From contig CAYWGS010000001.1 of the NCBI GenBank assembly GCA_964457525.1, forward strand, positions 18,411 through 50,410: a stretch of 32,000 nt of DNA, read 5' to 3'. Below the pieces are notes generated by a model. That model ran no database searches. It was not told where the DNA came from and worked only from the letters and a program-made list of their open reading frames with translations. Of the stretch, positions 4,513 through 19,942 are shown in pieces. The position numbers were made by a program, and so were the translations under genes. The stretch's first letter is position 1, and every line of letters starts with the position of its first letter. Source of the stretch: an uncultured Erysipelotrichaceae bacterium (GTDB taxonomy: Bacteria > Bacillota_I > Bacilli_A > Erysipelotrichales > Erysipelotrichaceae).

Positions 4513-5448
4513 TTATTTATCTTGTTCGAATAGTGTTTTAGCGAGTAAGGTAAACATCTTGTCGCGATAACGGATGACTTCTTCATCTCTACCATTTGAG
4601 TAGTCGTAGAAACCTGACCCATTCTTAACACCTAATTTATTATTCTCTACACATTCTTTGATTAAACCAAATGGTTCTTTATAGTCGCATAGATCAGGGA
4701 AGGTATATTTGGAGATATTATTATGAATATCAAGTCCCCCTAAATCACAGATTTCAAATGGACCAAATACTGCATATCTAAAGCCGAGTGCATACTTCAT
4801 CACATCATCCACACCTTCAGGGGTTGTTATACCTTCTTGTACGATATAGAGTGCTTCACGAAGGATTGCTTGTTGGAGGCGATTCAATACAAAACTTGGC
4901 GCATCTTTTACCTTAACCGGTTTCTTTTCAAGTTTGAGCGCGAGTTCATAGACGATATCTACAGTAGAATCACTGGTCAATTGTCCTTGAATAACTTCAA
5001 TTAGGGGAATGATATGTGGAGGGTTCATCCAATGCATACCCGCAAATCGTTCTGGATACATAACAGCTTCCGCAATTTTAGTAATACTTAATCCAGAGGT
5101 GTTACTACATAAGATTGTATCTTCTCTTACAAGTTCAGATACTTCTTTCCAGAATTTATGCTTAACATCGATGTTCTCAAGAATCGCTTCAATTAAGAAG
5201 TCCACATCTTTAAACGATTGAACATCATTTGAATATGAAATACGTCCTTTTAATTCATTTGATTTTTCTACCGATACAATACCCGATTTAATCCATGTTT
5301 CTTGGTTAATATCGACAAGTCGTTTTGCCTTATCTAAAGCGGTCTCAAAAATATCATAGACTGTAACCTCATAATTAAACAATGCGAATGTTTGGGCAAT
5401 CGAAGCACCCATTGTGCCAGCCCCTGCAATACCTATTTTCTTGATCAT
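4513..5448 (-). CDS. 3-hydroxyacyl-CoA dehydrogenase-family NAD-dependent oxidoreductase
   Basis: It has an N-terminal Rossmann motif (KIGIAGAGTMGASIAQ), then SNTSGL and GMHWMNPPHIIPLIEV, followed by the C-terminal helical domain. The substrate is not assignable from sequence alone. Confidence 0.8.
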   Translation of the reverse strand: MIKKIGIAGAGTMGASIAQTFALFNYEVTVYDIFETALDKAKRLVDINQETWIKSGIVSVEKSNELKGRISYSNDVQSFKDVDFLIEAILENIDVKHKFWKEVSELVREDTILCSNTSGLSITKIAEAVMYPERFAGMHWMNPPHIIPLIEVIQGQLTSDSTVDIVYELALKLEKKPVKVKDAPSFVLNRLQQAILREALYIVQEGITTPEGVDDVMKYALGFRYAVFGPFEICDLGGLDIHNNISKYTFPDLCDYKEPFGLIKECVENNKLGVKNGSGFYDYSNGRDEEVIRYRDKMFTLLAKTLFEQDK

Positions 5449-5675: not shown

Positions 5676-6521
5676 ATGCGAACGGTTCATACGAACACAA
5701 TAAAAGATGCGGTTAAGAACTTATTTATCGAAGCGAATTTTGATATCGGCGAATCGGTATTTAAGGTAATAAAGGATTCCTTACAAAAAGAGAAATCACA
5801 ATTAGGTCAATCGGTCTTAGAAAAGATCTATGAGAATAATGAATACGCTAAAAAAGAAAGAATTGCGATTTGTCAGGATACAGGAATGTCTGTCGTCTTT
5901 ATTCAAATTGGACAAGAGGTTCATTTTGAAGGAGACTTCATTAATGATGCGATTAACCAAGGCGTAAGAGAAGCGTATGAAGAAGGATATCTACGCAAAT
6001 CAGTCGTAAGAGATCCACTATTTGAACGAGTGAATACCAAAGATAATACACCTGCAGTGATTCATACGAGTTTTATTCCTGGAGATAAAATAAAAATTGA
6101 AGTCATGCCAAAAGGCTTTGGTAGTGAAAATATGAGCACATTAAAAATGTTTCCACCATCAGCGGGTGTTGAAGGTGTTAAACAGTTTATCGTAGAAGCG
6201 ATTGAAAAAGCAGGTCCGAATGCTTGTCCACCCATGATTGTTGGGGTGGGAATTGGCGGTACCTTTGAATACGCCAGTTATCTAGCGAAGAAGGCTGTCT
6301 TAAGAGGCCCTGATCACAAACATCCTGATTCACGTTATCGTGACTTAGAAGAAGAGATACTAACGAGAGTGAATAAGTCAGGGATTGGACCAGCTGGATT
6401 AGGTGGACTCACAACTGCATTCGCTGTCAATATCGAAGTTTATCCAACACATATCGCATCGATTCCTGTAGCGATAAATATTAGTTGTCACGCATCTCGT
6501 CATGCGTCGATTGAAATCTAG
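5676..6521 (+). CDS. Class I (Fe-S) fumarate hydratase, alpha subunit (two-subunit FumA/TtdA type); candidate mesaconase
   Basis: 281 aa. It carries the CQDTGM motif and further Cys residues (GPNACPP, NISCHASRH) typical of Fe-S hydro-lyase alpha subunits. The RBS is AAGGAG. Confidence 0.85.
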   Translation: MRTVHTNTIKDAVKNLFIEANFDIGESVFKVIKDSLQKEKSQLGQSVLEKIYENNEYAKKERIAICQDTGMSVVFIQIGQEVHFEGDFINDAINQGVREAYEEGYLRKSVVRDPLFERVNTKDNTPAVIHTSFIPGDKIKIEVMPKGFGSENMSTLKMFPPSAGVEGVKQFIVEAIEKAGPNACPPMIVGVGIGGTFEYASYLAKKAVLRGPDHKHPDSRYRDLEEEILTRVNKSGIGPAGLGGLTTAFAVNIEVYPTHIASIPVAINISCHASRHASIEI

Positions 6522-6529
6522 GAGAAGTT

Positions 6530-7087
6530 ATGGAAGAACGAAAAGTACAATTGCCTCTTACTGAAGAGACGATTTTGTCTCTCAAAGCAGGAGATAGTGT
6601 TTTATTAACAGGGACAATGATTACAGGTCGAGATGCGGCTCATCAACGATTATTTGAAACAATTCAGAATCACCAACCCTTACCAATTAAACTTGAGGGT
6701 GAAGTCATTTACTATGTAGGACCCGCTCCAAGTAAACCAGGGATCCCTGTAGGATCTGCAGGACCTACATCCAGTTATCGTATGGATAAAGTTGCCCCAA
6801 CCCTTATGGCACATGGACTAAAAGGAATGATTGGTAAAGGAAATCGTAATACTGAAGTTATTGAAGCCATTAAGAAACATAAATGTGTTTACTTTGCGGC
6901 AATTGGTGGCTTAGGCGCAATGATCTCCAAAAGTATCTTAAGCAGTGAAGTATTATGTTATGAAGATTTAGGAACAGAGGCGATTCACCGTTTCTGGGTC
7001 AAAGATTTTCCAGCCATCGTTGTGATTGACGCAATGGGTAATAATTTATATGAAATTGAACAAGCGAAGTTCAGGGAGTCAGAATAA
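6530..7087 (+). CDS. Class I fumarate hydratase, beta subunit
   Basis: 185 aa. GDSVLLTGTMITGRDAAHQRL...YYVGPAPSKPG...GPTSSYRMD...GKG match the hydro-lyase beta subunit. It starts 8 nt after the alpha stop. Confidence 0.85.
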   Translation: MEERKVQLPLTEETILSLKAGDSVLLTGTMITGRDAAHQRLFETIQNHQPLPIKLEGEVIYYVGPAPSKPGIPVGSAGPTSSYRMDKVAPTLMAHGLKGMIGKGNRNTEVIEAIKKHKCVYFAAIGGLGAMISKSILSSEVLCYEDLGTEAIHRFWVKDFPAIVVIDAMGNNLYEIEQAKFRESE

Positions 7088-8265: not shown

Positions 8266-8386
8266 TTTGTAAGCGCATTCTTATGTGAAATAGTGTAAAC
8301 TTAAACTATAGAACAAAACTTGTCTATGCCTAAACTCTTCATGATACAAAATCTGAACCAAGACTACGAGATAATATAAACTAAGC

Positions 8387-8420
8387 AAATGATGCACTTT
8401 TTCGGGCATCATTTTTGTTT
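8387..8420 (+). terminator. Hairpin plus T-tract between the malic enzyme gene and the glutamate mutase operon (terminator or attenuator)
   Basis: AAATGATGC (8387-8395) pairs with GCATCATTT (8406-8414), a perfect 9-bp stem with a 10-nt loop, followed by TTGTTT. The RBS GGAGAA at 8425-8430 follows within 5 nt. Confidence 0.6.
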
Positions 8421-8432
8421 GAATGGAGAACT

Positions 8433-9353
8433 ATGACACTCAGTATTGAACAATTTAGATATGCGACTTACTTTGCGCCTAGAGGTAAAGTACGTATGCA
8501 AAACTTGGGAAACCAAGTCAGTCAAAAGTATTTACTACCGAATGACCGAATCATTGGGATTATTGGTGATGCAGGAAGTGGAAAATCACTCTTTATAAAA
8601 GGGATGTTTCCGGGTTTAGAACTCACAAACGATGATGATGGAATCAATGTAAGACCTTCACCCCTCATGCGTGATTATGCTCAACTCAATTATCGTGCTC
8701 ACACCTATCATATTGATGCTCGATTTGAAGCCGCATTTACCCAAATGTTTGAGCTTGTGGATGCGGTCAATCAAGCAGTACAAAATAAGAAACGTGTGGT
8801 AATTGAGCATTTTGATGAGATATATCCTTATCTCAATATGAATGCCGATTTACTAATTGGAATTGGTGAAGAAGTCATTGTATCTCGACCGAATTTATTT
8901 GGACCAATCCCAGAAGATATAAAGATCACAGTCTATAAATCCATTCATTATCGCAGAATGGCACATAGTGCAGAAGACTTACTCGTTCATGTTCTTCAAG
9001 AGGACTACAATATTACCTGTGATGGACATGGAGATGTTAAACATGGCTTTATCTTATCGTTTAATAAGAAACCTAAAGCATCCATCTCTGTTTTAGAAAA
9101 GAAAGTAAAGTTGTTAATAAAGGATGATTTAACCATTAGTTATCATGACTCTACTCATATCAAGATTGGGGATAAGATTGATCAGTATTGTACAGGACCA
9201 CGAACACACGTGAATCATACTGGTCAAATTAAGAACTTTAGATTATTGAAAGATTATATTTATGACCCACAAAAGAAGACCTATGAGTTGGTTGGAATTG
9301 TGAGTGATGAAACCATCGAAGATATTCATAAATTGAATCATTTTGCGGACTAA
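8433..9353 (+). CDS. Uncharacterised P-loop protein; first gene of the glutamate mutase operon
   Basis: 306 aa from the ATG at 8433 (RBS GGAGAA). The track's TTG at 8415 lies inside the hairpin. Walker A is GDAGSGKS (8565-8588), followed by ...[11 protein letters not shown], which is reminiscent of HPr-kinase/RapZ-type P-loops. A possible Walker B is [10 protein letters not shown] do not recognise the C-terminal 150 aa. Confidence 0.6.
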
Positions 9354-9361
9354 GGAGCACT

Positions 9362-9787
9362 ATGGAAAAGATCAATGTCGTAATTGGAGTGATTGGGGCA
9401 GATGTACATGCGGTAGGGAATCGTATTATTGATTATGCGTTTACCCAAGCAGGCTTTAATGTGATTAATCTTGGGGTCATGGTATCTCAGAAGGAATTTA
9501 TGGATGCGGCGATTGAAACCAACGCAAAGGCTATCATTGTATCCAGTTTATATGGCCATGGTGAATTGGATTGTCGCGGTATGGGGGATATGTTAAAAGA
9601 AGCTGGATTAGATAATGTATTACTTTATATCGGTGGAAATCTTGTGGTCGGTAAATCCGATTTCAATGAAGTAGAGAAACTCTTTAAATCGATGGGTTTT
9701 CATCGTGTCTATCCGCCTGGAGCAGATATCAATCAAGGCATTGAAGATCTTAAGCATGATTTAAATGAGAAGGGAATTTATGCCTAA
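9362..9787 (+). CDS. glmS: Glutamate mutase (methylaspartate mutase) sigma subunit, B12-binding
   Basis: 141 aa. The cobalamin base-off/His-on motif DxHxxG is present (DVHAVG, 9401-9418), and the protein shows close end-to-end resemblance to clostridial MutS/GlmS. The RBS AAGGAG overlaps the upstream stop. Confidence 0.93.
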
Positions 9788-11135
9788 TTTTTATCTATTT
9801 GATGTGGGTTCAACCTACACAAAAGGATGTATCGTAGATACAGATTCAGAAGAGATACTTGCGCAAGCAAGTGATTTTACGACTTCAAGTACGGATATAT
9901 CCATTGGAATCGAAAAAGTTAAACATAAAATGATGCAAGGACTAGAATCTATTCATATCGATAAAACCTATGTCTGTAGTTCTGCTAAAGGTGGTCTCAA
10001 GATGATTGCGATTGGACTTGTACCAGACCTAACCCTTAAAGCGGCTCGATTGGCTTGTTATAGCGCAGGGGCAAAAGTCATACAATCCTATTCGTTTGAA
10101 TTAAACCAGAAAGAATTAGATGAAATTGAATCCTCACAATGCGACATATTACTCTTAAGTGGTGGTACAGATGGTGGAAATACAAGTTCTGTTCGTCATA
10201 ATGCGAATCAACTCATCAAACTAAGATCACGCTTTCCAATCATCTATGCTGGTAATAAATCGTGTCAGGATGAGATAAGAAACATCTTAGAATCCAATGG
10301 ATTTGAATGCATACTATGTTCAAATGTAATGCCAAGTTATGGAGTATTAGAAGTTGATGAATGTAAGGCAAAAATACGTGAGTTGTTTCTAAAATCTATC
10401 GTTAAGGCAAAAGGATTATCAAAGCTCAGTGCAGTCGTCGATGAGATTGTACTCCCGACTCCATCCAGTGTATTTGAAGCACTTAAACTACTTTCCAAAG
10501 GAACATACAATGAATCAGGTTTAGGAGATTTAATGGCCATCGATATTGGTGGTGCGACAACCGATGTTTATAGTATGAATGAGAAACTCGTGATTAACGA
10601 AGAATTTGGTTATAAAGGACTTCAAGAGCCCATTGAGAAAAGAAGTGTTGAAGGAGATTTAGGCTTACGCTTTAGTGCTTCACATGTCTATGAATTGAAG
10701 GAAGAGATACATAATCCGATCTTTGATCAATACATACAGGATATAAAACACAATCCACATCTAACGTCTAATCTGGATTTAGATACACAACTCGCAAGTG
10801 CTTGTGTTGAAATTGCGACAGAACGTCATGTGGGCCGACTTGAAACGAGTTATACTCCTATGGGGATTAACTATTATCAAACGGGTAAGGATTGTAGAGA
10901 AGTTAAACAGTGTATTGGGATTGGTGGACCGATTATCTATAATCCAAACGCAAAAAGGATTTTAGAGAATTGTTTAATGAAGAGTAATCATAAGGAAGTT
11001 TTATTGCCAATACAGTGTGAATATTATATCGATAAAGATTATTGTATCAGTTGTTTAGGACTATTGGCTAAACAGTATCCGGATGTTGTGTTACGAATCT
11101 TGAAAAAGAAATTGGAGAAAATAGATCATGTATAA
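9780..11135 (+). CDS. glmL: Glutamate mutase accessory protein GlmL/MutL
   Basis: Start [16 protein letters not shown] (ASKHA-type phosphate-1 motif) with a later DIGGATTDV. It occupies the canonical position between the S and E subunits. Its ATG overlaps the glmS stop by 8 nt. Confidence 0.85.
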
Positions 11136-12585
11136 TCGTAAAATCCCATTGGATGAATTTCTTAAACAACGTGAAGAAGTGCTTAAACAATGGAATACTG
11201 GAAAAGATGTGGATCTTGAAGAAGCAATTGAATACCAAAAATCATTAGATGAATCAAAGCGTTTCAGTAATAAACTAGCTCAAGCCATTGAGAATAAAGA
11301 AACATTGATTCAACCAAGAGCAGGGGTTGCGCTTCCTAATGAACACATCAAACTTCTAAAAACACTACAGGATGAAGGGGGAGCTGATTTACTCCCAACA
11401 ACCATTGATAGTTATACGCGTCACAATCGATATGTGGAAGCACAAACAGGGATTGATGAAAGTATTCGTACCGGGAAATCTCTACTCAATGGCTTTCCAG
11501 CTGTAAATCATGGGGTACAAGTTTGTCGCTCCATCATCTCTTCACTGAATGTGCCCGTTCAAGTACGTCACGGAACACCGGATGCTCGACTCCTTGCGGA
11601 GATTACCTGTGCTGGTGGATTTACCTCTTTTGAAGGAGGCGGTATTTCATACAATATTCCTTATGGAAAAAACTACTCCTTAGAAAAAACCATTACAGAT
11701 TGGCAATATGTGGATCGTTTAATTGGTTACTATGAAGAAATGGGTGTAACGATTAATCGTGAACCATTTGGTCCATTAACAGGAACACTTGTTCCAGCGT
11801 GTATTTCACACAGTGTAGCGATCCTCGAAAGCTTACTTGCGGCTGAACAAGGGTGTAAGTGCATTACGGTAGGTTATGGACAATGTGGAAATCAGAACCA
11901 AGATATCGCCGCAATTCGTACGTTGGATAAATTAACCAAAGAATATTTAGCACGATTTGGCTTTTATGATGTAAGCGTATCAACTGTATTCCATCAATGG
12001 ATGGGAGGCTTTCCACAAGATGAAGCGAAAGCTTATGCAGTTATCAGTTGGGGTGCGAGTACAGCAGTATTATCCGGTGCCACAAAGGTAATTGTTAAAT
12101 CACCACACGAAGCCTTTGGAGTCCCAACCGCAGAAGCGAATGCGAATGGATTAAAAACGACTAAACAATTAACGTCCATGTTAAAGGATCAAGTCTTTAC
12201 AGAGACAAATGAAATTAAAGCAGAAATGGATATCATCGAGAAAGAAACACGCAGTATCATGGAAGCGGTGTTGAAACTCGGTGAGAATAACTTTGGACTC
12301 TGTGCAGTACGTGCATTTGAAGCTGGATTGATTGATGTTCCTTTTGCCCCAGCAACCTGCAATGCGGGAAAGATGTTGCCGGCGAGAGATAATAATGGCG
12401 CGATTCGTATCTATGAATTCGGGAATCTTCCATTCGATGAATCACTTAAAGAGTTCCATCGTCAGAAACTCCAAGAAAGAGCGGATGTGGAACGTAGACA
12501 AGTGAGCTTCCAAATGGTAATTGATGATATATATGCCGTTAGTAAAGGTCGTCTTGTAGGACGTCCAAGTAAGGGGAATGTATGA
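11128..12585 (+). CDS. glmE: Glutamate mutase epsilon (catalytic) subunit
   Basis: 485 aa. Long blocks match clostridial MutE/Glm[85 protein letters not shown]. It overlaps glmL by 8 nt. Confidence 0.95.
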
Positions 12586-13841
12586 AAATAATTGATGTTA
12601 TTAGTAGTTGTGGTAGAACGGGGTTTTTCTTTGATGATCAAAAAGCGATCAAAAAAGGGGCACAATCCGATGGGAACTTCTACTTGGGTAATCCTGTCAC
12701 AGAAGGCTTTACGCGAGTTAGACAAGCGGGAGAATCACTTACGATTATGCTTGTATTAGAAGATGGACAGGTCGCATTTGGGGATTGTTGCGCTGTGCAA
12801 TACAGTGGATGTGGTGGTCGTGATCCACTCTTCATCGCCTCAGATTTTCAAAAGATTGTACAAGATAGAATACGACCATTATTACTCAATCGTGAATTGA
12901 CTTCGTTTAAAGAACTTGCCTATGAATTTGACCATCTAGAACTTGATGGCAAACGAATCCATACCGCATTACGCTATGGCATTACTCAAGCACTCTTAGA
13001 TGCGGTCGCTAAATCCCAACATACTCAAATGGCTAATATTATTGCGAATGAATATCATACCAATGTTAGTGAACAACTTATCCCAATCTTTAGTCAAAGT
13101 GGGGATAATCGCTATGATAATGTGGATAAGATGATTCTTAAAGAAAGTGCTGTTCTTCCACATGGATTAATTAATCATGTTGAAACAAAGTTAGGTTATC
13201 AAGGTGAGAAATTACTTGAGTATGTTAAGTGGTTAAGAAAACGAATTGATGATTATCGTAATCATGAGGATTACAAACCGGTATTACACATCGATGTCTA
13301 TGGAACATTAGGCATTATATTTAAAGAAGATTATGATGCGATGGTGGATTATCTTAAAACATTAAGAGAAGCAAGTGGCCCCTATCATTTACGCATCGAA
13401 GGTCCAGTCGATTTTGATGATCGTGAAAAAACCATGATGGGTCTACAAATCATTACACGTATGTTAGATGAGCGTGGAATTGAATGTGAGATTGTCGCAG
13501 ATGAATGGTGTAATACCCTCGAAGATATTAAAGAATTTGCGGATAAAAAAGCAGGTCATATGGTTCAAATCAAAACACCTGATTTAGGTGGTATACAAAA
13601 TATTGTGGAAGCTGTGTTGTATTGTAAGGAAAAAGGAATTGGGGCCTATCAAGGTGGTACATGCAATGAAACTGATATCAGTGCTAAGGCATGTGTTCAT
13701 TGTGCTATGGCTACTCAACCTGTACAAATTCTCGCAAAACCGGGTATGGGTGTTGATGAAGGATACATGCTTGTTTATAACGAAATGAAACGTATTATCG
13801 CTCTTGAAACGATACGAAAGGAGCGTCATGAAAAGTATTAA
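12582..13841 (+). CDS. mal: 3-methylaspartate ammonia-lyase (methylaspartase)
   Basis: 419 aa. MKIIDV...[17 protein letters not shown]...[15 protein letters not shown]...[28 protein letters not shown] closely parallels C. tetanomorphum methylaspartase, an enolase-superfamily enzyme. An ATGA overlap joins it to glmE. Confidence 0.95.
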
Positions 13842-15180
13842 AATATTATCCACAACCGCTATTCTAGGGTATGGATTTCCAATGGCCAGTTTCGAAGCTG
13901 GGATGAAGAAGAATCCAGATTGTATTGCGGTTGATGCAGGATCAACCGATCCTGGTCCATATTATTTAGGTGCTGGGGTTTCCTTTACCGACTATTACGC
14001 AGTTAAACGTGACTTAGGCATCATGATTCAAGCAGGGATTGAACATCATGTGCCTGTGCTTGTAGGAACTGCAGGTGGTAGTGGTGCGAAACCACATTTA
14101 GATTGGACAATTAAGATTGTAAAAGAGATTGCGGAAGAAAATAATCTACATTTTAAGATGGCGATTATTGAAGCAGATATAGATAAGGAAATCTTATATA
14201 AAGCATTTGATGAAGGTAAGATTAAACCTCTACATCCAGCACCTGAATGTACAAAAGATGACATAAAAGATTCAACCTATATCGTCGGTCAAATGGGTGT
14301 AGAGCCTTTTATCGAAGCGCTCAAACAAGATGTGGATGTGATTATTGCAGGAAGAGCATATGATCCAACGGTGTTTGCGGCTTTACCTATTCTTCGTGGA
14401 TTTGATCCTGGTTTAGCCTTGCATTGTGGAAAGATTCTAGAATGTGCAGCGATTGCCTCAACTCCAGGTAGTGGTAGTGATTGTATGTTTGGAACAATCT
14501 ATGAAGATTCATTTGTGTTAGAGACCCTTAATCCAGCGCGTAAGTGTACAACACTCAGTGTTAGTGCACATACACTCTATGAAAAAACCAATCCATATAT
14601 CTTACCAGGACCGGGAGGAACCATTGATTTGCATAACACAACCTTTACTCAACTCAATGAAAACCAAGTTGAAGTTAAAGGAAGTGTTTATATTCCATCC
14701 AATCCATATACCATTAAACTCGAAGCAGCGAAGTGTGTAGGCTATCGCACCGTAAGTATAGCTGGAGTACGAGATTCCATCTTTATTCGTGAGATTGATT
14801 CTATAATTACTGGAGTTGAACAACGTGTTAAAGATAACTTCAAAGACTTAAAAGATTATCATCTAAACTTCAAAGTCTATGGTAAGAATGGAGTGATGGG
14901 TGATCTTGAACCCATCAAAGAAATTCATTCCCATGAATTATGTATCGTAATTGATGCGGTAGCTCAAAGCCAAGAAGTAGCGAATACCATTTGTAGTTTT
15001 GCGAGAAGTACGATGCTACATTATGGTTATGAAGGAAGAATCGCAACAGCAGGTAATCTTGCATTCCCATATTCACCTTCTGATTTTAAAGTAGGTGCTG
15101 TGTATAATTTTAGTTTGTATCATTTAATTGAAGTAAGCGATCCCGTTAATCTATTCAAACAAACGATCGTAGAATTGTGA
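13828..15180 (+). CDS. Uncharacterised protein, tentatively AtuA/DUF1446-like
   Basis: 450 aa from the ATG at 13828, after AAGGAG at 13818-13823. It overlaps the mal stop by 14 nt. The size and its pairing with a roughly 100-aa DUF4387-like partner suggest the AtuA-type family. The assignment is from memory, not from a search. Confidence 0.5.
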   Translation: MKSIKILSTTAILGYGFPMASFEAGMKKNPDCIAVDAGSTDPGPYYLGAGVSFTDYYAVKRDLGIMIQAGIEHHVPVLVGTAGGSGAKPHLDWTIKIVKEIAEENNLHFKMAIIEADIDKEILYKAFDEGKIKPLHPAPECTKDDIKDSTYIVGQMGVEPFIEALKQDVDVIIAGRAYDPTVFAALPILRGFDPGLALHCGKILECAAIASTPGSGSDCMFGTIYEDSFVLETLNPARKCTTLSVSAHTLYEKTNPYILPGPGGTIDLHNTTFTQLNENQVEVKGSVYIPSNPYTIKLEAAKCVGYRTVSIAGVRDSIFIREIDSIITGVEQRVKDNFKDLKDYHLNFKVYGKNGVMGDLEPIKEIHSHELCIVIDAVAQSQEVANTICSFARSTMLHYGYEGRIATAGNLAFPYSPSDFKVGAVYNFSLYHLIEVSDPVNLFKQTIVEL

Positions 15181-15187
15181 GGAACGT

Positions 15188-15505
15188 ATGAAACATAAAC
15201 TCATAGATTTAGCGAAAGTGATTCGTTCTAAGAATTCAGGTCCTTATGAAATTACCTTTGATATCATCTTCAAAGACCGTGAAACCTTTGAAATCATGTG
15301 TCAACACAAGTTTATTAACGAAAAGTTGATTTCAGAACTTTACCATATTCCTGAATCCGATGTGATTAATATTATTGAATTTGTCCCTGCACAAGCGATT
15401 AAGGCAACCATTGTTCGTCCAATGTGTAGCGGTGATATTCGTGAAACAGATGTTTATGGTGCTCAACAACATGCGCCACTTCTTGATTTAGAATTTGATT
15501 ACTAA
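15188..15505 (+). CDS. Uncharacterised small protein, tentatively DUF4387-like (partner or C-terminal module of AtuA-type proteins)
   Basis: 105 aa. VIRSKNSGPYEITFDIIFKDRETFE matches my recollection of the DUF4387 signature. It starts 7 nt after the upstream stop, with the RBS GAGGAA overlapping that stop. Confidence 0.5.
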   Translation: MKHKLIDLAKVIRSKNSGPYEITFDIIFKDRETFEIMCQHKFINEKLISELYHIPESDVINIIEFVPAQAIKATIVRPMCSGDIRETDVYGAQQHAPLLDLEFDY

Positions 15506-15529
15506 CCATCCTTAGGATGGTTTTTGTTT
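15504..15529 (+). terminator. Rho-independent terminator ending the glutamate mutase operon
   Basis: AACCATCC (15504-15511) pairs with GGATGGTT (15515-15522), followed by TTTTGTTT. It begins within the stop codon of the last gene. Confidence 0.75.
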
Positions 15530-15614
15530 ACAATTATGTTTACATTGAGATGAAATATTATTTACAAAAGTGTTTACAATATTTCTTTACTTTGTTTACA
15601 AAAGTGTTTACAAT
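15525..15614 (+). repeat. Array of TGTTTACA boxes, including a 20-bp perfect direct repeat, upstream of the Fic gene
   Basis: TGTTTACA occurs at 15525, 15537, 15571, 15593 and 15605, with the variant TATTTACA at 15559. TTTACAAAAGTGTTTACAAT occurs identically at 15561-15580 and 15595-15614, a 34-bp period. Confidence 0.8.
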
Positions 15615-15638
15615 GAAGGTAAATAGTGAGGTTATAAC

Positions 15639-16820
15639 ATGATTGATGAGTACCTTGATTTAACGAGTAAGAGAATATATCCTTCGAAAAAAGAATGGTT
15701 TTTTAAATATGGTAAACATGGAAATGAATATCAGAAATTATTAGAGTATAAGAAAACAAATCTAACTCAAATAGATTTATATACAACAGAGGGAAGTATT
15801 TATTTTAACCGTGATTATATTCAGTCGTTTGTAAAGGAGTATTATCAGACTCAAGATTTAGGGATAGACTCTCTTATCCATTTTTCAGAAACATTTGAAG
15901 ATATGTTAATTTTTAGTGAAGTTGAAGGAACACTTGAGATTGAAGGGATAAAAACATCAAAAAAGAAAATTGAAGATGTCCTTTCAAAGGATACGTATGA
16001 TTCAAATGAGCAAATAATTGTAAATATGAAGAATGGGATCGATTTCATTTTTGAGAATGAAATAACAGAGAAGAATATATATGAACTTTATAAAATATTA
16101 TCTTTTAACAGTCTAAAAGAAGATGAAATAATACAGGATGGTTACTATCGTAATTCAGGTGTAGATATAATTGGGAAATATGGTGAGATCAGTGATTCTG
16201 GGGTAGATGCTAAGAACTTAGAAAAGTGGATGAAACGCTTTGTAGACTTTATTCAAGAGTCTATGTCAGAGTTAAATAGTTTAACGTATATCATGCCGCA
16301 CATCATACATTATTATGTTATTTACTTACATCCGTATTACGATTTTAATGGAAGAATGGCTCGAATGATTGCTTATTGGTATATCGTAAAATGCCATCAC
16401 ATTAAAGATAAGATGCCAGTTTATAGCGAGGCTATTAATTATAATTCTCAGACAAAAGCATTGTATTATAAAGCCATCGAAAACGCGCGTGAAGATGATA
16501 ATGATATAACCTTCTTTATTGAGATGATGTTTAAATTAGGGACTCGATTTATAGATGTCTATATCAAACTAGATAAGATTGAAATACGAAGTAGAAGAAA
16601 TAAAATGATACTAACTAAGAACGAAATAAGCCTATTAAAATCGATTCTTCTTCATGTTGGGACATCAGAATATTTCACATGGGAAGATGTTTATGCGTAT
16701 GATAAAGCACAATATACAAAACAGTACTATTTTAAGTTATTGAATTCGTTGAAAGATAAAAAAATCGTTGAAATAGATATAAAAAATAGAGTTTATTTCT
16801 ATAAACTAGTTGAAATTTGA
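15639..16820 (+). CDS. Fic/DOC-family protein with an N-terminal inhibitory-helix motif and a C-terminal wHTH-like tail
   Basis: 393 aa. The Fic core is HPYYDFNGRMAR (16329-16364), compared with the canonical HPFx(D/E)GNGRxxR. TLEIEG matches the (S/T)xxxE(G/N) auto-inhibition motif. The RBS is GTGAGG. The gene is visibly more AT-rich than its neighbours. Confidence 0.8.
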   Translation: MIDEYLDLTSKRIYPSKKEWFFKYGKHGNEYQKLLEYKKTNLTQIDLYTTEGSIYFNRDYIQSFVKEYYQTQDLGIDSLIHFSETFEDMLIFSEVEGTLEIEGIKTSKKKIEDVLSKDTYDSNEQIIVNMKNGIDFIFENEITEKNIYELYKILSFNSLKEDEIIQDGYYRNSGVDIIGKYGEISDSGVDAKNLEKWMKRFVDFIQESMSELNSLTYIMPHIIHYYVIYLHPYYDFNGRMARMIAYWYIVKCHHIKDKMPVYSEAINYNSQTKALYYKAIENAREDDNDITFFIEMMFKLGTRFIDVYIKLDKIEIRSRRNKMILTKNEISLLKSILLHVGTSEYFTWEDVYAYDKAQYTKQYYFKLLNSLKDKKIVEIDIKNRVYFYKLVEI

Positions 16821-16865
16821 AATGGATTTTCGCTTTTTTACGCCTAAAACCCATAATCCAAGGTT

Positions 16866-18808: not shown

Positions 18809-19942
18809 ATGATAAAAGACGAAAGTTTGTATATTGCAGGTCCACTTTGTTTTTATAAAAATGGATATGGCATGTGGGATGCATTGAAAAAGGAAGCAGA
18901 GTTTTATGGATTTACTGTCGCTCTTCCTAATAATAATGTTTTAGAATATGAAGAAGGTAATAAGCGTCAATTCAGTGCTGCGATTTTTAAGAATTGTAGA
19001 GATTCAATCAATAAAACAACCTGTCTTATTGTTAACTTAGAAAACTATCGTGGATTAGTCCCAGATGGTGGTTCGGTTTATGAAATGGGTATGGCATACG
19101 CTAAGGGTGCTAAACTCTATGGATTTACACGTGATAAACGACCTGCTCGTATGAAATATGGACATGGTAAATATGTGGGTAATGATATTATTGATCTTGA
19201 TGGTCGTAAACTTGCACATAAAGATTTAGCATTTGGACCATGTATTGTTGGTTCTACAAAGATTGTGGAAGGTAAGTTTGGTGATGCACTTCAAATGTTT
19301 ATGACAGATATTGAAGAGGATTCAAAACTCAAAGCATCTCGTAATGTGTTTGTGCTTGATGCGGATCCACAAGTAACCGTTGAACCTTCTGATAAGCCTA
19401 GAGTCTATCTTTCTACTTTTGAACGTTATGATAATGACGCAAAAGAGAAACTAGAATCAATGAAGAAAATTTGTGAGAAATATGGATTTATTGGCATTAG
19501 TCCACTCGATGATGCGCCAATGGTTGAGAGAATAAACAGTGATGATGTGATGGAAATGGCGTATAACCAATTTGATCACTTCCAACAACACGTACGCAAT
19601 TGTGATATTATCCTAGCGAACTTAAATAATTACCATGGTTATGAACCAAACGATGATGTTTCATTTGAATGTGGAATGGCATTCCAATTAGGTAAGAAGT
19701 GTTTTGGTTACCTAGATGAGGTTAAACCAATGATTGATTTAGTTCCAAATCGTGGTGAAGCATTTGAATATCGTGATTTAAATGATATGAATGTTGAGAA
19801 CTTTGCGAATCCATTGAATTTAATGTTTGGGGCATCTTTCACATTGTTTGAAGGTAAATTTGAAGAAGCAATCAAGCAAATGGCTGAAGCATTAGTTGAT
19901 TTTAAGCTTGCGGATGATTTAGTTCCTCCAGTACTTGACTAA
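18809..19942 (+). CDS. Tandem-duplicated nucleoside 2-deoxyribosyltransferase-like protein
   Basis: 377 aa with two homologous halves. LYIAGPL...LENYRGLVPDGGSVYEMGMAYAKGAKLYGF...VEGKFGDALQMF aligns with VYLSTF...LNNYHGYEPNDDVSFECGMAFQLGKKCFGY...FEGKFEEAIKQM. Both halves keep the Asp...Glu-x-Gly core seen in Lactobacillus NDT (D-x-G-x-x-M-E-L-G-Y-A). Confidence 0.7.
   Translation: MIKDESLYIAGPLCFYKNGYGMWDALKKEAEFYGFTVALPNNNVLEYEEGNKRQFSAAIFKNCRDSINKTTCLIVNLENYRGLVPDGGSVYEMGMAYAKGAKLYGFTRDKRPARMKYGHGKYVGNDIIDLDGRKLAHKDLAFGPCIVGSTKIVEGKFGDALQMFMTDIEEDSKLKASRNVFVLDADPQVTVEPSDKPRVYLSTFERYDNDAKEKLESMKKICEKYGFIGISPLDDAPMVERINSDDVMEMAYNQFDHFQQHVRNCDIILANLNNYHGYEPNDDVSFECGMAFQLGKKCFGYLDEVKPMIDLVPNRGEAFEYRDLNDMNVENFANPLNLMFGASFTLFEGKFEEAIKQMAEALVDFKLADDLVPPVLD

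Follow-up and report, generated by a model that had tools for sequence, protein, structure and literature searches.

A methylaspartate-pathway cluster with a predicted CmlAB-type citramalate lyase and a conserved P-loop protein in an uncultured Erysipelotrichaceae bacterium

We analysed a 32,000-nucleotide stretch of DNA (hereafter the window) from an uncultured Erysipelotrichaceae bacterium (contig CAYWGS010000001.1, positions 18,411 to 50,410) and conclude that it very probably carries a complete methylaspartate-pathway cluster, which would take glutamate to pyruvate, acetate and ammonia by way of a citramalate lyase of the CmlAB type. The conclusion is carried by the homology of each protein, by full-length matches of two of them to the CmlA and CmlB subunits of solved structure, by conserved synteny and by the mutual exclusion of this lyase and the classical CitDEF. 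In the proposed pathway, GlmS and GlmE, with GlmL as accessory protein, would convert L-glutamate to (2S,3S)-3-methylaspartate, from which Mal would remove ammonia to give mesaconate. A two-subunit class I fumarase encoded upstream would then hydrate mesaconate to (S)-citramalate, and CmlAB, made up of an AtuA-family protein and a DUF4387 protein, would split citramalate to pyruvate and acetate in place of the acyl-carrier-dependent CitDEF. The original prediction for this DNA had described a seven-gene operon with three uncharacterised genes. Two of these are the predicted CmlAB pair; the third encodes a P-loop protein and is considered separately below.

Results

The AtuA/DUF4387 pair matches a citramalate lyase of solved structure

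The proteins encoded by the two genes after mal pass the Pfam cut-offs for AtuA (PF07287, 73 bits against 22.8) and DUF4387 (PF14330, 137 bits against 27), and NCBIfam holds no model for either subunit. In the PDB, the larger protein matched 9erq_A and 9evf, "Citramalate lyase, subunit A (cmlA)", with an E-value of 3.6e-168 and 58% identity (residues 2-441 on 3-441), and the smaller matched 9erq_B, "Citramalate lyase, subunit B (cmlB)", with an E-value of 1.4e-27 and 48% identity (residues 1-105 on 1-105). A Foldseek search with a model of the small subunit returned 9evf_B, from the entry "Citramalate lyase - ADP - pyruvate complex", released 2025-10-08; this single-sequence model was poor (predicted local distance difference test, pLDDT, 40) and served solely to retrieve the title of the entry. 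The enzyme from Raoultella planticola (9ERQ, 9EVF) splits citramalate directly to pyruvate and acetate; growth on mesaconate was dependent on the lyase, acetyl-CoA became labelled, and the enzyme was expressed as cmlAB, a gift from the Berg laboratory (bioRxiv 10.64898/2026.01.16.699985). In 2015 the same laboratory had described a DUF1446 gene downstream of mal in Enterobacteriaceae and in Dictyoglomus, and had stated that the fate of citramalate was unclear (PMC4682846). The linkage of this gene to mal, put forward for the window as a novelty, was thus already in the literature.

We consider the pair, on its sequence relationships, to be a citramalate lyase of non-CitDEF type. The statement that the window encodes no citramalate lyase is therefore not supported. 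CitD, CitE, CitF and CitC were absent from it (tblastn with three representatives per subunit, E ≤ 1e-3). Cleavage of (S)-citramalate and binding of ADP, which are known only for the Raoultella enzyme, are predicted for the window pair. As an aside, ADP bound to an AtuA-family lyase (9EVF) is unexpected for a simple retro-aldol cleavage, and this nucleotide may bear on the role of AtuA in terpene catabolism.

Neighbourhood census

The gene neighbourhoods of 160 related loci, 80 anchored on the P-loop protein and 80 from metagenomes anchored on Mal, were compared by mapping pathway proteins on both sets with tblastn and clustering of open reading frames (ORFs). The lyases were scored within ±10 kb, and loci are cited by their L numbers. 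CmlAB was present in 48 loci, CitDEF in 42 and both in none; the two lyases were mutually exclusive in all 90 lyase-carrying loci, bearing out the anticorrelation with CitDEF that had been anticipated. In the window, cmlA and cmlB are adjacent and directly follow mal, an order repeated in E. coli and in 48 related loci. The order of all ten genes described below recurs in the Erysipelotrichaceae relatives L001, L002, L008, L011 and L033 (genome contigs) and L083 (metagenome), and the closest match, L082 (RRZT011269606.1), is 99.6% identical to the window across 11.9 kb. Linkage was found in both directions, from the P-loop gene to the pathway and from mal to the P-loop gene, which substantiates the view that the extra genes are conserved partners of the core. 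That they supply the missing downstream step can be upheld for the AtuA/DUF4387 pair, as CmlAB.

Two departures from these arrangements were seen. Carboxydocellales- and Thermincola-type clusters (L020, L036, L042 and L075, and also L032) carry two extra genes between mal and cmlA, namely a 327-codon ORF (cluster c26) and a gene for a BcrAD/HgdC-like activase, identified by eye from its sequence. Three loci from human gut metagenomes (L138, L145 and L155), with flanks of at least 5 kb per side, have glmS-glmL-glmE-mal and none of the P-loop gene, fumarase, CmlAB and CitDEF; either the pathway genes are scattered in these bacteria or methylaspartate or mesaconate has another fate.

It is conceivable that the AtuA-family and DUF4387 proteins of this organism are no citramalate lyase but paralogues that act on another substrate or handle a cofactor, and that citramalate is cleaved by an enzyme encoded elsewhere in the genome. 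The Pfam AtuA match is partial, with its best stretch at residues 248-404, neither subunit has an NCBIfam model, AtuA proper acts in an unrelated terpene pathway, and the genome was inspected within the window. We nevertheless regard this explanation as highly improbable, given the full-length identity of 58% and 48% to the solved CmlA and CmlB, the position right after mal as in E. coli strain 042, whose corresponding protein is 59% identical to window CmlA, and the fact that the pair never occurred together with CitDEF in the 90 lyase-carrying loci.

The closest known systems are the Raoultella planticola CmlAB and the cluster of E. coli O157/042 (Kronen & Berg 2015, PMC4682846). As in the window, adjacent genes for proteins of about 450 and 105 amino acids, of the same Pfam families, lie directly downstream of mal, in the same pathway context, and the cluster includes a class I fumarase. 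The E. coli 042 order is glmS-glmL-glmE-mal-AtuA family-DUF4387-symporter-class I fumarase (fumD)-cobO-LysR. The window cluster differs in that its host is a low-GC, Erysipelotrichaceae-like Firmicute and not an enterobacterium, that its fumarase has two subunits whereas FumD is fused, that it lacks the transporter, CobO and the LysR regulator, and that it includes the P-loop gene and a malic enzyme. The classical clostridial cluster (C. tetanomorphum/C. tetani type, gntR-glmS-glmL-glmE-mal-mesAB-citDEF-citCXG) shares the first three steps and the two-subunit mesaconase-type fumarase, and the P-loop gene also accompanies clusters of this CitDEF type; in contrast, the window lyase is CmlAB and not the acyl-carrier CitDEF with its activation genes, and no GntR regulator was found in the window.

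Composition and layout of the cluster

The features of the cluster are collected in Table 1. GlmS, GlmL, GlmE, Mal and both fumarase subunits exceeded the NCBIfam equivalog cut-offs. The core is a glutamate mutase/methylaspartase operon, as had been proposed.

Table 1. Coordinates in the window of the genes and transcription-related elements of the cluster
Feature	Position	Strand	Evidence
Class I fumarase alpha subunit (Fumerase), candidate MesA	5676..6521	+	PF05681, E 1.6e-114; NF004885, 408.7 bits against 276
Class I fumarase beta subunit (Fumerase_C), candidate MesB	6530..7087	+	PF05683, E 3e-58; NF005310, 269.8 bits against 238
Short malic enzyme, 391 amino acids	7090..8265	+	Pfam malic and Malic_M
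Hairpin and T-run in the 167-nucleotide spacer	about 8387..8420	+	-12.9 kcal/mol, z = -3.4; ends about 12 nucleotides before the P-loop start
P-loop protein, 306 amino acids (TsaE-like ATPase half and AlaX/tRNA_SAD-like half)	8433..9353	+	Motifs, sub-cut-off Pfam, Foldseek
glmS (mutS), B12-binding small subunit of glutamate mutase	9362..9787	+	NCBIfam NF002612, 220 bits against 110; TIGR01501
glmL (mutL), glutamate mutase accessory protein	9780..11135	+	NCBIfam NF040745, 533 bits against 475; Pfam MutL, E 1.5e-142
glmE (mutE), catalytic subunit of glutamate mutase	11128..12585	+	NCBIfam TIGR01503, 757 bits against 390
mal, methylaspartate ammonia-lyase	12582..13841	+	NCBIfam TIGR01502, 587 bits against 286
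cmlA, predicted CmlAB large subunit (AtuA/DUF1446 family)	13828..15180	+	PDB 9erq_A/9evf match
cmlB, predicted CmlAB small subunit (DUF4387)	15188..15505	+	PDB 9erq_B match
Intrinsic terminator, operon end	15504..15532	+	Stem 15504-15522, 8 bp AACCATCC/GGATGGTT, then T-run TTTTGTTT

The seven genes between 8433 and 15505 lie on one strand, and an ORF map together with direct reading of the sequence reproduced every gap and overlap described earlier for them: a gap of 8 nucleotides (9354-9361) between the P-loop gene and glmS, overlaps of 8 nucleotides between glmS and glmL and between glmL and glmE, of 4 nucleotides (ATGA) between glmE and mal and of 14 nucleotides between mal and the AtuA-like gene, and a gap of 7 nucleotides before the DUF4387 gene. 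Three starts required a choice. For the P-loop gene, the mechanical ORF begins at a TTG at 8415, and the ATG at 8433, after GGAGA, was preferred because homologues begin at the equivalent position. For glmL, the mechanical ORF begins at 9765, and the ATG at 9780 was preferred because the alignment to the NCBIfam GlmL model starts only at residue 11 of the long ORF. The ATG at 13828, after AAGGAG, was preferred for the AtuA-like gene because, counted from that start, the alignment with the solved CmlA begins at residue 2.

Directly upstream are three further tightly packed genes on the same strand, those for the two fumarase subunits and the malic enzyme, with gaps of 8 nucleotides between the alpha and beta genes and 2 nucleotides before the malic enzyme gene. 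The pathway unit is consequently one of ten genes and not seven. Class I fumarases of two subunits that are encoded in such clusters are candidate mesaconases, MesAB (PMC4682846), and on the strength of that work the window fumarase is a candidate for the hydration of mesaconate to (S)-citramalate. Of the 160 related loci, 63 contain FumA/FumB genes. The fumA-fumB-malic enzyme trio is kept in the Erysipelotrichaceae loci, and Sporomusa-type loci (L040, L062, L065 and L072) have the order malic enzyme-fumA-fumB; SfcA has been noted in some clusters (PMC4682846 Fig. 4). Two roles considered for the malic enzyme were rejected: it could not oxidatively decarboxylate citramalate, a tertiary alcohol that cannot be oxidised, and a 3-methylmalate route is unnecessary once CmlAB is recognised.

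The cluster is presumably co-transcribed, as judged from the sequence. Of the single terminator that had been described, the stem at 15504-15522 and its T-run were found again, but it is not the only terminator-like site of the region, since a second hairpin with a T-run lies in the spacer (8266-8432) between the malic enzyme and P-loop genes. This hairpin is conserved, as L001, L002, L008 and L011 each carry one at the equivalent place with a different stem sequence, and it is either an internal terminator of the fumarase/malic enzyme unit or an attenuator. Rfam gave no match in the window, nor in this spacer at permissive thresholds. The spacer also contains a block that is conserved in the relatives and includes a TAnnCT hexamer (8296-8301), which may be a -10 element. 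A 17-codon ORF (MPKLFMIQNLNQDYEII) lies at 8326-8379 and is also open in L001. Together, the hexamer block, the short ORF and the hairpin look like a leader or attenuator.

The P-loop protein accompanies Firmicutes clusters with either lyase

The first of the seven genes encodes a member of a tight Firmicutes family. Of the species genomes scanned, at least 520 encode a relative. Over 3,500 proteins belong to the family at E ≤ 0.001, with 324 representatives at 50% identity, mostly fragments; an exhaustive search among representatives returned no distant relatives. Sequences that share 52-87% identity show little or no variation in the motifs GDAGxGKS (Walker A), YHxDxRFE (TsaE-type), HxDxxHGF and CTGPRxH. 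The scores of the window protein lie below the cut-offs for TsaE (PF02367, 22 bits against 26.6; TIGR00150, 21.3 against 60.1) and tRNA_SAD (18.8 against 24), and the sub-cut-off Pfam matches to both recur in 16 of 17 family members. In an AlphaFold model (pLDDT 76), Foldseek matched the N-terminal half to TsaE (6n9a_E, E ~1e-3) and the C-terminal half to AlaX (1v7o, 1wnu) and AlaRS editing domains (E ~1e-4, TMt ~0.55). Searches of PDB sequences with a profile and with single domains gave no significant relative, AlaX included. The resemblance to TsaE (YjeE, of the t6A TsaBDE complex) is thus confined to the level of fold and motifs, namely the Walker A motif, a YHxDxxR-type motif and a weak profile match, as the family cut-offs are not reached; the C-terminal half has a predicted fold like that of the AlaX trans-editing proteins and contains a CxxxxxH motif. 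Unlike either, the P-loop protein fuses both domains, and its context is amino-acid fermentation and not tRNA modification. Four candidate domain fusions in the family (P0211, P0147, P0181 and P0206) look like chimeric assemblies and gave no functional clue.

When loci anchored on the P-loop protein had at least 6 kb of flank per side, pathway genes were present in 37 of 42, and 34 of these 37 had glmS, glmE or mal. Conversely, the P-loop gene was found in 23 of 27 loci anchored on Mal with at least 5 kb per side, and in the Mal-anchored set it accompanied 22 of 25 CitDEF-type clusters. The gene has no fixed position: it may precede glmS, follow cmlB, stand between mal and fumA or citD, or lie beside cobA. 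Because both kinds of lyase are found with it, its role is linked to the whole pathway and not to CmlAB. In our view, Firmicutes clusters have in the P-loop protein a conserved accessory that is independent of lyase type.

Several observations weigh against so close a tie. Five loci with full flanks (L032, L048, L051, L059 and L080) have no pathway gene within 10 kb of the P-loop gene, three of them being Peptococcaceae-type loci with the gene beside rph-rdgB; E. coli clusters work without it; and some clusters (L058 and L068) have the P-loop gene but no glmL. As for the rph-rdgB site, the P-loop gene directly precedes rph-rdgB(-yfcE) in L032, L048 and L059 (and in L046, L054, L066 and L079), with no glutamate mutase genes within 10 kb, and in other Firmicutes (L020, L053 and L065) the same block also borders entire glutamate mutase clusters. 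This suggests that the rph-rdgB site is the ancestral location, from which the cluster was later lost or relocated. Two hypothetical genes (314 and 140 codons) lie just upstream of glmS in E. coli 042 (L081, 2796-4243); the 314-residue protein was considered as a homologue of the P-loop protein and is unrelated to it.

By analogy with TsaE, our best guess is that the P-loop protein may assist the glutamate mutase module in an ATP-dependent manner. The TsaE-like domain might dock on GlmL, which we take from its Pfam clan to be an ASKHA-fold protein, as TsaE does on the ASKHA pair TsaB-TsaD; no informative solved relative of the GlmL structure was found. More specifically, and quite tentatively, a TsaE-like ATPase fused to an AlaX-like domain that binds an aminoacyl-adenosine-type ligand might, with GlmL, maintain the activity of the adenosylcobalamin-dependent glutamate mutase, for instance through the release of damaged cofactor.

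Two other roles were weighed. The protein might handle cobalamin (adenosylation or delivery) and so replace the CobA/CobO of enterobacterial clusters: in E. coli the cluster contains cobO but lacks the P-loop gene, no gene for CobA or any other adenosyltransferase is present in the window, and the P-loop gene lies 8 nucleotides from glmS, the gene of the B12-binding subunit. This appears unlikely, as the P-loop gene and cobA stand side by side in at least nine loci and hence are not alternatives, and as comparison with CobA/BtuR, PduO, EutT and G3E/MeaB by Pfam, NCBIfam, PDB sequence and Foldseek searches revealed no similarity.

We also think it improbable that the protein is a trans-editing enzyme, or an aminoacyl-ester hydrolase, that would protect translation from 3-methylaspartate or another intermediate mischarged onto tRNA, with the AlaX-like half as the hydrolase and the TsaE-like half as an ATP-driven tRNA-handling module. 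The top Foldseek matches are indeed AlaX and AlaRS editing domains, the family shows an invariant CTGPRxHV motif of tRNA_SAD-like type, the two families matched weakly are both tRNA-related, and in several Peptococcaceae-type loci with no glutamate mutase genes within 10 kb the gene neighbours rph (RNase PH) and rdgB. Yet both Pfam matches are under the cut-off, no AlaX match was found in the PDB at the sequence level, and E. coli makes methylaspartate without this protein; the rph-rdgB block, bordering whole mutase clusters as it also does, may be ancestral synteny. The motif spacing differs as well. In AlaX and ThrRS the His and Cys motifs are spaced by roughly 100 residues, and the HxxxxH (H199/H204) and CxxxxxH (C253/H259) of the P-loop protein are unlike this in their spacing and non-canonical with respect to the HxxxH...CxxxH zinc motif. 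A helper of the glutamate mutase module is the role that we favour.

Flanking genes

Downstream of the cluster, a Fic-domain gene (15639-16820) with its flanks (15524-16862) is missing from the syntenic relatives L083 and L001, and the segment is therefore an insertion. Before the Fic gene, three 23-nucleotide direct repeats (TTGTTTACAAAAGTGTTTACAAT), exactly 34 nucleotides apart (15524-15614), look like operator or promoter repeats. Further on, a gene at 18809-19942 encodes a 377-residue protein in which two stretches resemble nucleoside 2-deoxyribosyltransferase, apparently as the result of an internal duplication. Upstream of the cluster and divergent from it lies a 3-hydroxyacyl-CoA dehydrogenase gene (4513-5448, minus strand), which fits with butyrate formation from acetyl units in a glutamate fermenter.

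Discussion

Certain points tell against a complete pathway ending in CmlAB. The function of CmlAB is taken from the names and entry titles given by PDB depositors and from one preprint that used the enzyme, and no primary CmlAB paper was found in the literature searched; the enzyme activities in the Erysipelotrichaceae host are those predicted from homology. The malic enzyme is without an assigned step in the proposed pathway, and the terminator-like hairpin in the spacer, which splits the fumarase and malic enzyme genes from the rest, may make two transcription units of the cluster.

The gap in the fate of citramalate in clusters without CitDEF was a real one, and other work has meanwhile closed it with CmlAB. 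In RefSeq (September 2026) and NCBIfam (June 2026) the two genes are still labelled "AtuA family" and "DUF4387", and as a result many genomes of gut and environmental Firmicutes appear to lack the last step of glutamate fermentation. Within the scope of the census, CmlAB is widespread in Firmicutes and strictly alternative to CitDEF. The novelty that remains lies mainly in the conserved gene of P-loop/AlaX-like type, and less so in the malic enzyme and the hairpin of the leader. A P-loop ATPase that accompanies mutase clusters in at least 520 species genomes is a lead in the maintenance of B12 enzymes; if our proposal is true, the methylaspartate pathway, known for 60 years, would have in the P-loop protein of Firmicutes an ATP-dependent component that had gone unrecognised.

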